Shown piece after piece: positions 41,932 to 43,241 of a DNA stretch of 64,000 nt. Within the stretch, counting starts at the first letter, position 1; every line of letters begins with the position of its first letter. A program made the translations under genes and the position numbers. The stretch lies in the IMG/VR virus record IMGVR_UViG_3300020331_000002; one strand, written 5' to 3'. Below the pieces are notes generated by a model, which was not told the DNA's origin, made no database searches, and saw only the letters and a list, made by a program, of their open reading frames with translations. The stretch comes from a virus. Lineage: Duplodnaviria > Caudoviricetes.

Positions 41932-42270
41932 ATGCAGCCTTATGTGTATTATGGCTACGGTATTAAACTAGGCGAAGTTACTGAAGAAGAGTTTGACCAA
42001 ATAGAAGATGATGACTTTTTTCAAATTGCTTGGTTTAGTGACGGTTGCCGTGAGCAAGATTCCGGCATTGCATTTATAGACAATGCGTATCACTCACCAT
42101 GGGACGAAGACACTACGGAAAAACCTTCCCTGTCTTATGCTGTTGATACCGGTGATATTGACTCAGCGCGTATGAAGTATTTGCCGGAGTTACAAAAAGT
42201 TCTTGACCATCCGATGGTCAAAAAGTATAATAAGCAGATTAAATTTTACGTTTGTTGTACTGAAGTTTAA
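41932..42270 (+). CDS. Hypothetical acidic protein (112 aa)
   Basis: Likely ATG 41932 (MQPYVYYGYGIKL...); track start is an upstream TTG. Confidence 0.7.
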   Translation: MQPYVYYGYGIKLGEVTEEEFDQIEDDDFFQIAWFSDGCREQDSGIAFIDNAYHSPWDEDTTEKPSLSYAVDTGDIDSARMKYLPELQKVLDHPMVKKYNKQIKFYVCCTEV

Positions 42271-42280
42271 CAGTAAATGT

Positions 42281-42351
42281 GGCCCTGATTTGGCATAAGT
42301 AGCCGGTCTCTAAAACCGCGAAAGTGGGTTCGAATCCCGCCAGGGTCACCA
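42281..42351 (+). tRNA. Compact 71-nt tRNA with CUA anticodon (amber suppressor / tRNA-Pyl-like architecture), encoded CCA
   Basis: Acceptor GGCCCTG/CAGGGTC + A + CCA; T-arm GTGGG-TTCGAAT-CCCGC; anticodon arm (G)CCGGT-CTCTAAA-ACCG(C); short D-arm ATTT-GGCAT-AAGT. Confidence 0.85.
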
Positions 42352-42373: not shown

Positions 42374-42502
42374 ATGGTAATTCCTGTTGTCAATATTTAT
42401 TGCATCAACTCGCCGTTCATTTGCTCGTTCGGTGGGCTATGCCAATATACAACATCGTCTGGTGGCTGCCATTACCCTGGCCCGTGCAAATTTAAAGTAT
42501 AA
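42374..42502 (+). CDS. Small Cys-rich protein (42 aa)
   Basis: SD AAGGA; MVIPVVNIYCINSPFICSFGGLCQYTTSSGGCHYPGPCKFKV; below ORF-track cutoff. Confidence 0.55.
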   Translation: MVIPVVNIYCINSPFICSFGGLCQYTTSSGGCHYPGPCKFKV

Positions 42503-42517
42503 TTAAGGAGAAACGTC

Positions 42518-42895
42518 ATGCGTTAGAACACTCAAAAACCATCACTTAAAATGTGGCGCTGGGGCAACGATAAGTTCGCCACTGGCTATAGAATATTCAC
42601 TTTATTCCATTCCAAAACACTCGGTATCGACTTGTATCTATTCAGGTATCCCGAGGGCTCATTCATTCCTAAGCATAAAGATCCTAAAACAAACGGACCT
42701 ACTACTCGTATAAACTTAGAACTCCGTAAAGCTCAGCAGGGCGGTGTTTTCAAGTGTAAGCGTAAATGGTCGTTGTTTGATAGATTACACGTCTTTAGAG
42801 CAGATAGAGACTATCACTCTGTGTCTAAAATAGAGAAAGGCTCTCGTTGGGTTTTGTCTTTAGGGATAGCAAACGTGTTCAAGAAACCGAGATAA
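42518..42895 (+). CDS. 2OG-Fe(II) oxygenase-like protein; the SD-supported start (42518) has an in-frame TAG at codon 3, internal ATG at 42551
   Basis: HxD (KHKD), distal H (YHSV) and R (GSRWVLS) pattern; AAGGAG 42505-42510 then ATG CGT TAG AAC ... in frame with ATG 42551. Confidence 0.7.
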
Positions 42896-42899
42896 TCGT

Positions 42900-43241
42900 C
42901 TATTTATTGGAAGTAATAATCAAGAATAAGCCGAGTGTGATGAATAACATACCGGCTACTTCTTGTATGTTGACTATCCTGTCTTTAAAAATCATTGTTT
43001 GGATAATTATTGCGCATAAGAATGAGCATCCTTGCGCTACGAGCGCAAGGGCTGGGTAACTATAATGTGATGATCCCGTACTGTAAAAATAAGTATATAA
43101 CCCGGTAGCAAGCCAAGTTATCGGAACGCATAAAAGTGATATGTAGAGTGAGTCTTGTAAATTGTTACTTCCTCTACTTATCGCCCATATGTTTGGAATC
43201 TGAACGAGTATTGACGCGCATAATATCGTTAACCATATCAT
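42900..43241 (-). CDS. Small multi-pass membrane protein (SMR/DMT-like, about 4 hydrophobic segments)
   Basis: 113 aa, four hydrophobic stretches, ends ...QEVAGMLFITLGLFLI; own sigma70 promoter. Confidence 0.65.
   Translation of the reverse strand: MIWLTILCASILVQIPNIWAISRGSNNLQDSLYISLLCVPITWLATGLYTYFYSTGSSHYSYPALALVAQGCSFLCAIIIQTMIFKDRIVNIQEVAGMLFITLGLFLIITSNK

Follow-up and report, generated by a model that had tools for sequence, protein, structure and literature searches.

A phage cassette of a CUA tRNA and a small oxygenase-fold gene with an early in-frame amber codon: a candidate translational gate

How is a protein made from a gene whose third codon is a stop? The question is raised by a locus at positions 42,505 to 42,895 of a 64,000-nucleotide stretch of DNA (hereafter the window) from IMGVR_UViG_3300020331_000002, the record of a marine jumbo phage, in which a small gene for a predicted 2-oxoglutarate (2OG)/Fe(II) oxygenase opens with an in-frame amber codon and lies downstream of a tRNA whose anticodon, CUA, reads UAG. 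Coordinates are those of the window, and features are on the plus strand unless stated otherwise. A Shine-Dalgarno (SD) sequence, AAGGAG (42505-42510), is followed after a 7-nt spacer by ATG 42518, and the leader ATG-CGT and the gating TAG together occupy 42518-42526 (TAG at 42524-42526, +4 base A). There follows a linker encoding NTQKPSLK (AAC ACT CAA AAA CCA TCA CTT AAA; 42527-42550), which is translatable only by readthrough of the TAG, and then an in-frame ATG (42551-42553), ahead of which no purine-rich or SD-like motif was seen and which may serve as a minor, tRNA-independent start in this lineage, the position being Leu in most relatives. The full readthrough open reading frame (ORF; 42518-42895) comprises 125 codons and a TAA (42893-42895) and encodes the putative oxygenase fold, and all of the codons from ATG 42518 to ATG 42551 share a single frame with the ORF through that TAA. 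The SD sequence serving ATG 42518, the in-frame TAG at codon 3 and the internal ATG lacking an SD sequence had all been singled out in an earlier sequence-only reading, and each lies exactly where that reading had placed it. The arrangement is far beyond chance, as it recurs in at least 26 diverged lineages and is unique of its type in the 310-kb genome.

The answer favored here is that the locus constitutes a two-part cassette, composed of a CUA suppressor tRNA and a small oxygenase-fold gene with UAG as its third codon, and that synthesis of the oxygenase probably needs decoding of UAG by the phage tRNA, with output following the balance between the suppressor and release factor 1 (RF1). This model proposes that ribosomes would load at the SD-led AUG 42518 and that, at UAG 42524, either RF1 would end translation after fMet-Arg or the phage tRNA, once processed and charged, presumably by a host synthetase, would insert a residue and so allow synthesis of the 125-residue enzyme. 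How much enzyme is made would then depend on the level of suppressor tRNA relative to the RF1 activity of the infected cell.

Homologous loci were gathered from IMG/VR, metagenome contigs and species genomes and were parsed automatically. They yielded 27 distinct gated proteins, in each of which a leader of Met plus zero to six residues is followed by a stop and by a linker ending in K-P-[ST]-[LM]-[KR]-[LM]-[WF]-[KR]-W-G. In every one of the 27 rows that make up the gated clade the stop is one of codons 2-8; it is TAG in 25 and TAA in two, the latter being closely related. In a maximum-likelihood tree all gated sequences form one clade (support 100/99) with the TAA pair nested inside, and terminal branches within the clade reach approximately 1 substitution per site; on this tree the gate is best read as having arisen once, with a single TAG-to-TAA change within the clade. 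As TAG has been kept through such deep divergence, although eight of its nine possible single-base changes would yield a sense codon, it can be argued that the dependence itself has been selected. Ungated homologues, at approximately 40% identity, carry a W..GRQ motif and ordinary starts, and include those of Ralstonia phage RP12, Burkholderia phage FLC9 and cellular metagenome-assembled genomes. The nearest cultured relative is the ‘2OG-Fe(II) oxygenase’ of Xanthomonas phage XaC1 (58% identity), which opens with GGAG followed by ATG AAA TAG ACC AAA CCA TCT TTA AAA ATG and thereby keeps K-P-S-L-K through synonymous changes. In the T4-like Vibrio phage nt-1 the opening is ATG TAG ACT CAA AAA CCA ACG TTA with no later start codon, and the gene is annotated in GenBank (ORF180) from an internal start, approximately 35 residues short. 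The same SD-ATG-x-TAG opening is thus present in XaC1, nt-1 and more than 20 uncultured lineages. At the DNA level, a near-identity search of the phage collection gave no match, and a more distant search returned XaC1 only. In one 137-kb IMG/VR contig (L021), the GGGG run within the codons for the conserved W-G has lost 1 nt at approximately position 2030, through either a frameshift or an assembly error; its close relatives (P0008 and P0009) are intact.

One prediction, already put forward in the sequence-only reading, is that the TAG should be found only where a CUA tRNA is encoded in the same genome, and the present survey bears this out. A covariance model was built from eight upstream tRNA elements and used to search the genomes, whereupon a tRNA with a CUA anticodon was found in every complete or large genome holding a gated gene, and in 25 of the 26 distinct TAG-bearing lineages; the remaining lineage (L053) is represented by a 4-kb contig, which does not allow absence to be judged. 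The model matched nothing in five complete genomes that carry ungated homologues, and an ungated homologue situated inside a tRNA cluster has Lys and Asn tRNAs as neighbors, with no CUA tRNA beside it. The CUA tRNA abuts the gated gene on one side or the other in 22 lineages, and in 24 it lies directly upstream, directly downstream or within 2 kb. It is directly downstream in nt-1 and on the L021 contig, 0.7 kb upstream on the L022 contig, and 62 kb away, in a canonical 74-nt form, in one complete 344-kb genome (L023). This repeated repositioning of the tRNA (upstream, downstream or distant, compact or canonical) suggests continued selection to keep some CUA tRNA in the genome. Two arrangements stand out on their own account. 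On L066, two CUA tRNAs surround the gated gene, a canonical 76-nt form upstream (750-825) and a compact 70-nt form directly downstream (1843-1912). In the chromosome of Allohahella sp. A8 (NZ_CP172312.1), two identical cassettes of tRNA and gated oxygenase gene (L044 and L045; 769-776 kb and 822-828 kb) lie 52 kb apart; the pair could belong to a large prophage, or could stem from a terminally repeated phage genome that was joined to the chromosome during assembly.

If the model holds, the codons following the TAG should be translated as part of the protein, and several observations speak to this point. Across 28 sequences, entropy in the six codons before the conserved Trp is 1.16, 0.42 and 1.63 at codon positions 1, 2 and 3, respectively, a periodicity like that of the following core codons, and the linker motif K-P-[ST]-L-[KR] is conserved with synonymous changes; the linker is constrained as coding sequence. 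In about half of the gated lineages, no ATG, GTG or TTG follows the stop before the conserved core is reached (nt-1, L018, L019, L020, L023, L024, L044, L051, L053, L056, L057 and L079 are among them). At sites where Met is encoded, as at 42551, other lineages have Leu in its place, the pattern expected of a conservative substitution. An in-frame ATG is present 1 or 3 codons before the conserved Trp in approximately 10 of the 27 gated lineages, and initiation at ATG 42551 may supply a basal level of product in the phage of the window, but cannot be the conserved mechanism. The proposal of a self-contained recoding switch, first made from the window sequence, accordingly gains backing from the co-occurrence of the tRNA, from the lineages that have no later start and from the constraint on the linker.

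The initiation and stop contexts are likewise consistent with a gate. Most of the 28 gated loci have an SD-like motif ahead of the leader ATG, at a distance of 6-10 nt, and the base following the gate stop (+4) is A in 26 and G in 2 of the 28, compared with A after 7 of 47 ordinary TAG terminators of the window phage (Fisher p ~1e-11). A purine 3' of the codon favors amber suppression in Escherichia coli. Relative to a 98%-identical relative of the phage, the 92 nt from 42491 to 42582, which span the SD sequence, leader, TAG, linker and first core codons, are invariant, while approximately 5% of sites differ in the flanking coding sequence, mostly at third positions. No significant RNA structure that might account for this invariance was detected over the gate region (z = -0.43). 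In two marine metatranscriptome studies, contigs were assembled that run from the tRNA into the 5' part of the oxygenase gene; they show no differences, and the TAG is intact in them. These are weak evidence, DNA carry-over being possible and no transcript ends, strand or level being readable from them.

The tRNA of the window (42281-42351) is 71 nt long and ends 166 nt before ATG 42518. Its acceptor stem has 7 bp, its D arm is reduced, its anticodon loop reads CUCUAAA and it has no variable loop. The T arm is normal (5-bp stem, TTCGAAT loop), the discriminator base is A73, and the CCA end is encoded. The D region can be drawn as a 3-bp stem with a tiny loop or, instead, as a 5-9-nt connector beside an extended anticodon helix, so that the element is not a canonical cloverleaf with a full D arm of the kind that standard finders detect. 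With default settings ARAGORN called no tRNA in the window, while a relaxed threshold called the element as a CUA tRNA; similarly, no Rfam family was matched anywhere in the window at gathering threshold, and a permissive scan placed the Rfam tRNA model at 42281-42348 with 28.4 bits against a gathering score of 29. The CUA tRNA previously described as lying about 170 nt upstream on the same strand is thus real, but it is atypical and less clear-cut than that description implied. Its single difference from the counterpart in the 98%-identical relative preserves a base pair. Among the tRNAs of the genome, the closest anticodon arm is that of the phage's own tRNA-Trp. That tRNA-Trp (31632-31711 of the genome record, outside the window) is itself atypical, being 80 nt long and called only at the relaxed ARAGORN threshold. 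Gln, Lys, Trp and Tyr are candidates for the residue that would be inserted at UAG, given synthetase identity rules (U35, A36 and A73) together with the Trp-like anticodon arm. From its conserved partner gene with an in-frame TAG, the tRNA would be expected to be expressed, charged and capable of decoding UAG.

Comparison across lineages reveals strong covariation in these tRNAs. Among 23 distinct homologues with a CUA anticodon, all 23 form acceptor pairs 1-6, each of which is represented by 4-6 pair types, and 22-23 form the individual pairs of the T stem (as the MAFFT alignment misplaces the 5' acceptor gaps, acceptor covariation was counted by a script that works from the 3' end). Of 12 pairs predicted by RNAalifold, 11 have compensatory changes, and the prediction suggests that the D stem and variable loop are replaced by an extended, interrupted anticodon helix. 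Two length classes are evident, compact (67-71 nt) and canonical (74-76 nt), the partner being an ordinary tRNA of the latter class in six lineages. All 25 partner tRNAs carry CUA in the anticodon loop; 24 fit YTCTAA and the other (L018) reads CCCTAA, and CTAA is invariant in a 10-sequence alignment. A73 is present in 21 of the 25, and the A36-A37-A38 loop context is kept in most. Because acceptor sequences are not conserved, any synthetase would have to rely mainly on the anticodon and discriminator. Neither of the compact CUA tRNAs in the two cultured phages is annotated: that of XaC1 (L002:1384-1453), directly upstream of the gene, is missing from the GenBank record, and that of nt-1 (L008; HQ317393.2 90462-90528, minus strand) is covered by no annotated feature.

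The product of readthrough is predicted to be a minimal single-domain protein with a 2OG/Fe(II)-oxygenase fold. The HxD...H...R pattern noticed in the sequence-only reading is present, in the numbering of the 125-codon ORF, as H53-x-D55 (42674-42682), H100 (42815-42817) and R110 (42845-42847); these correspond to the iron-binding triad of 2OG oxygenases and to the basic residue for the 2OG C5 carboxylate. The four residues and S114 are invariant in 27 aligned relatives, and the four also in a 9-sequence alignment. Pfam PF13640 (2OG-FeII_Oxy_3) scores the window protein at 18.9-19.2 bits against a cut-off of 27 (E 0.003), and matches 15 of 27 relatives at E < 0.01 (best E 3.4e-7). An AlphaFold2 model (predicted local distance difference test score, pLDDT, 91; predicted template modelling score, pTM, 0.82) is all-beta and consists of a bare double-stranded beta-helix (DSBH, jelly-roll). 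Its structural matches include cupin/DSBH proteins (Z up to 10.2) and the 2OG enzymes PolD (Z 9.5), two PHDs (Z 8.0) and AspH (Z 7.9), as well as small predicted, uncharacterised ‘Fe2OG dioxygenase’ proteins at a template modelling score of 0.8; a profile search against PDB sequences gave a marginal P4H match only (E 0.09). As to substrate, searches with Foldseek (PDB, Swiss-Prot and AFDB clusters) and VIA-align offered no clue beyond generic cupin/DSBH and protein-hydroxylase-type matches, and the flanks of the cellular homologues L047 and L077 were uninformative, encoding MopE-repeat proteins or proteins with no Pfam match. The family corresponds to PHROG 13746, where function is unassigned, and comprises approximately 440 clusters at 50% identity in public data.

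What purpose might such a gate serve? Many gated and some ungated members sit inside phage tRNA clusters, a location compatible with a role in tRNA biology or translation and equally with tRNA islands being hot-spots for small accessory genes. The best guess at present is that the gate would tie an enzyme acting on the translation apparatus or tRNA to the presence of an active suppressor. A more elaborate version of this idea is a self-referential circuit, in which the oxygenase would target components of decoding or termination, or else the suppressor tRNA (possibly RF1, a decoding-centre ribosomal protein or an anticodon-loop base), such that suppression would feed back on its own efficiency, and in which the compact tRNA would be a natural, orthogonal-like ‘private codon’ adaptor kept by standard-code phages for one gene. 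This extension is unlikely, and a feedback role on translation is attractive but unsupported. The timer or host-dependent gate, and the modification of the tRNA by the enzyme, that were suggested in the sequence-only reading are likewise unsupported.

There are several alternatives to this model. It is conceivable that the M-R-stop mini-ORF simply brings ribosomes to an unstructured, A-rich leader, and that the enzyme, then of 114 residues, is made by reinitiation or independent initiation at ATG 42551, with no role for the tRNA. Such a scheme is favored by the in-frame ATG 24 nt after the stop in this phage, by the comparable ATG near the conserved Trp in roughly 10 of the gated lineages and in the TAA variants, which lack a nearby suppressor tRNA, and by the lack of significant RNA structure that might block initiation. 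However, ATG 42551 has no SD sequence, about half of the lineages offer no start codon of any kind after the stop, Met alternates with Leu, and the codons between stop and Met are constrained as coding sequence. In addition, a coupling mini-ORF could use any stop, yet TAG is used in 25 of the 27 rows and is accompanied by a CUA tRNA wherever this can be judged. Initiation at the internal ATG is consequently regarded as a rather doubtful account of the locus. A second possibility is that the leader is a minigene which, like lambda bar, sequesters peptidyl-tRNA, the downstream ORF being separate or incidental. The ORF is indeed very short and sits behind a strong SD sequence, and in several lineages it is reduced to start and stop (ATG TAG). 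However, neither leader length (1-7 codons) nor leader sequence is conserved, while the identity of the stop, the +4 A and the in-frame continuation are, and a peptidyl-tRNA sink needs neither an in-frame downstream gene nor a cognate suppressor tRNA; this explanation is very unlikely. Both reinitiation and the minigene had been offered as alternatives in the sequence-only reading, and both are weakened by the lineages with no later start, by the constrained linker and by a stop that is almost always TAG despite the variable leader.

If, on the other hand, the tRNA does decode UAG, the oxygenase could be one of many TAG-containing genes in a partly recoded phage of the ‘code 15’ type. A phage-encoded CUA tRNA is a hallmark of TAG-recoded phages (bioRxiv 10.1101/2021.08.26.457843), and one gene caller placed Q at the TAG in the 98%-identical relative (P0001). 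However, in the 310,672-bp record of the window phage, which has direct terminal repeats and a gp23-type capsid gene, coding density is 0.918 whether TAG is taken as stop or sense, 47-57 genes terminate in TAG, and TAG-joined ORF pairs are not over-represented. Moreover, when the 310-kb genome was scanned for a start codon, a TAG within 10 codons and a long ORF thereafter, with an SD filter, the oxygenase gene alone had an SD sequence and no obvious later start, and no other convincing gated gene was found; the other SD-filtered match resembles the stop of an upstream gene followed by a later start. The rest of the phage uses the standard code, general recoding is highly improbable, and the tRNA appears to serve one gene. 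A PTH2 gene was sought and is absent from this genome; four other genomes with the gated oxygenase do have PTH2 genes, all with ordinary starts, and the gate is therefore no by-product of a PTH2 cassette. It has also to be asked whether the compact tRNA is of a pyrrolysine-type or otherwise special kind and supplies the enzyme with a non-standard residue on which it depends. The tRNA-Pyl label that ARAGORN gives it reflects nothing but the CUA anticodon, while the short D region and extended anticodon stem would suit such a tRNA. Nevertheless, no PylS-like gene was found in the 310-kb genome (TIGR02367; the control search exceeded the cut-off in 1 of 14 control genomes, the one expected to hold PylS), the UAG has no fixed position (codon 2-8) and falls within an N-terminal stretch that is poorly conserved and not part of the catalytic core, and the partner tRNA is ordinary in six lineages, so that a special residue has very little probability. 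Least probable of all is a decaying pseudogene or assembly error with coincidental adjacency of the tRNA. The deletion in the G run of the L021 contig could be taken as a sign of decay, but the TAG is kept across a clade of long branches with invariant catalytic residues, 12 of the 17 differences between the gene and that of a close relative are at codon position 3, and the oxygenase sequence is identical in independent assemblies and in the RNA-library contigs. The minigene, pseudogene, genome-wide recoding and pyrrolysine explanations each fail a test made here.

Several considerations nonetheless count against readthrough by the phage tRNA. Because the gate arose once, co-occurrence in 25 of 26 lineages represents retention along one clade and not 25 independent events. 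The tRNA of the window, with its reduced D arm, its score below the Rfam threshold and its absence from default ARAGORN output, is assumed to be competent on bacterial ribosomes. An active amber suppressor should also read through the approximately 47 TAG terminators of the phage and those of the host, and a different +4 context is all that was seen to set the gate apart. ATG 42551 could give some tRNA-independent product in this phage. Lastly, the two TAA variants (L054:863 and L055:1492, the latter on a contig of 319,623 bp) open with ATG AAA TAA ACT...; their linker contains an in-frame ATG, a strong TTGACA-17-TATAAT promoter immediately precedes the gene, and no suppressor tRNA was found within 1.5 kb of them; if still active, the gene in these variants would seem to work without a matching adjacent tRNA.

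The surroundings of the gated gene provide some further context. The order on the plus strand is promoter, tRNA, a 42-codon ORF and the gated gene. The promoter, a sigma-70-like TTGACC-17 nt-TATAAT (42203-42231) with 11 of 12 consensus matches, lies approximately 50 nt ahead of the tRNA and could drive a unit of tRNA, small ORF and oxygenase gene; promoter-consensus sites in the region number 6 against 5.7 expected. The 42-codon ORF (42374-42502), between the tRNA and the oxygenase gene, is Cys-rich (five Cys) and has AAGGA 7 nt before its ATG. Of the 17 sites at which it differs from its counterpart in the 98%-identical relative, 13 are third codon positions, so that it probably encodes a real small protein. 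No Pfam family matched it, and it is specific to this lineage, none of the others showing it. Downstream, a convergent 113-codon gene (42900-43241, minus strand) encodes a small hydrophobic protein with a weak, below-cut-off match to EamA-like transporters (E 0.004). A cluster of 23 ordinary tRNAs is located approximately 160 kb from the gated locus in the same phage record.

In the literature searched, no published description of an amber-gated oxygenase or of a single-gene suppressor cassette was found, coverage being incomplete and this being no proof of absence. Scans for readthrough as C-terminal extension missed the gate because the stop comes within the first codons and the gene itself tends to be annotated too short or overlooked. 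Should readthrough be confirmed, the cassette would represent a natural one-codon translational switch in the form of a portable two-gene module. Two phages in culture, XaC1 and nt-1 (the latter on V. natriegens), make the hypothesis directly testable. The compact 67-71-nt CUA tRNAs and the conserved UAG-A context may also interest those who engineer suppressor tRNAs or expand the genetic code.

Among published systems, the closest are the code 15 phages (crAss-like, Lak and others), in which TAG is read as Gln by means of phage suppressor tRNAs (bioRxiv 10.1101/2021.08.26.457843), with proteomic validation (PMC9523058). These likewise use a phage CUA tRNA for in-frame TAG, and their recoded-stop genes are proposed to be silent until the suppressor is active. 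However, in those phages in-frame stops are scattered through tens of late structural and lysis genes and TAG is depleted as a terminator, whereas here a single small accessory gene has one TAG within its first 8 codons, usually with the tRNA adjacent, and TAG is an ordinary stop elsewhere. If readthrough is confirmed, the cassette would be akin to genome-wide recoding in a simpler form, and might hint at the way in which recoding starts. CUA suppressor tRNAs have also been reported in standard-code phages, namely Xanthomonas phage XacN1 (PMC5852040), Ralstonia phage RsoM2USA (PMC8504454) and Stenotrophomonas phage Summit (PMC9022506), and target genes could not be found by the authors of the XacN1 (PMC5852040) and Summit (PMC9022506) studies. 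The phage of the window resembles these in combining the standard code with a CUA tRNA and differs in that a specific conserved target is identified, such that the cassette offers a concrete conserved target for the CUA suppressor tRNAs of standard-code phages. Since XacN1 gave no tblastn match to the window oxygenase, its suppressors may serve a different target. A parallel may further be drawn with prfB, the gene for release factor 2, in which an early in-frame UGA makes synthesis depend on termination versus alternative decoding; however, prfB employs a +1 frameshift and its product reads the stop, whereas the present gene would rely on cognate decoding by a dedicated tRNA. Finally, as in the bldA/TTA control of Streptomyces, a single tRNA species would license genes containing its codon, but bldA acts through the sense codon UUA in many regulatory genes of its own genome, while the codon here is a stop, the target is apparently single, and tRNA and target travel together as a phage cassette.

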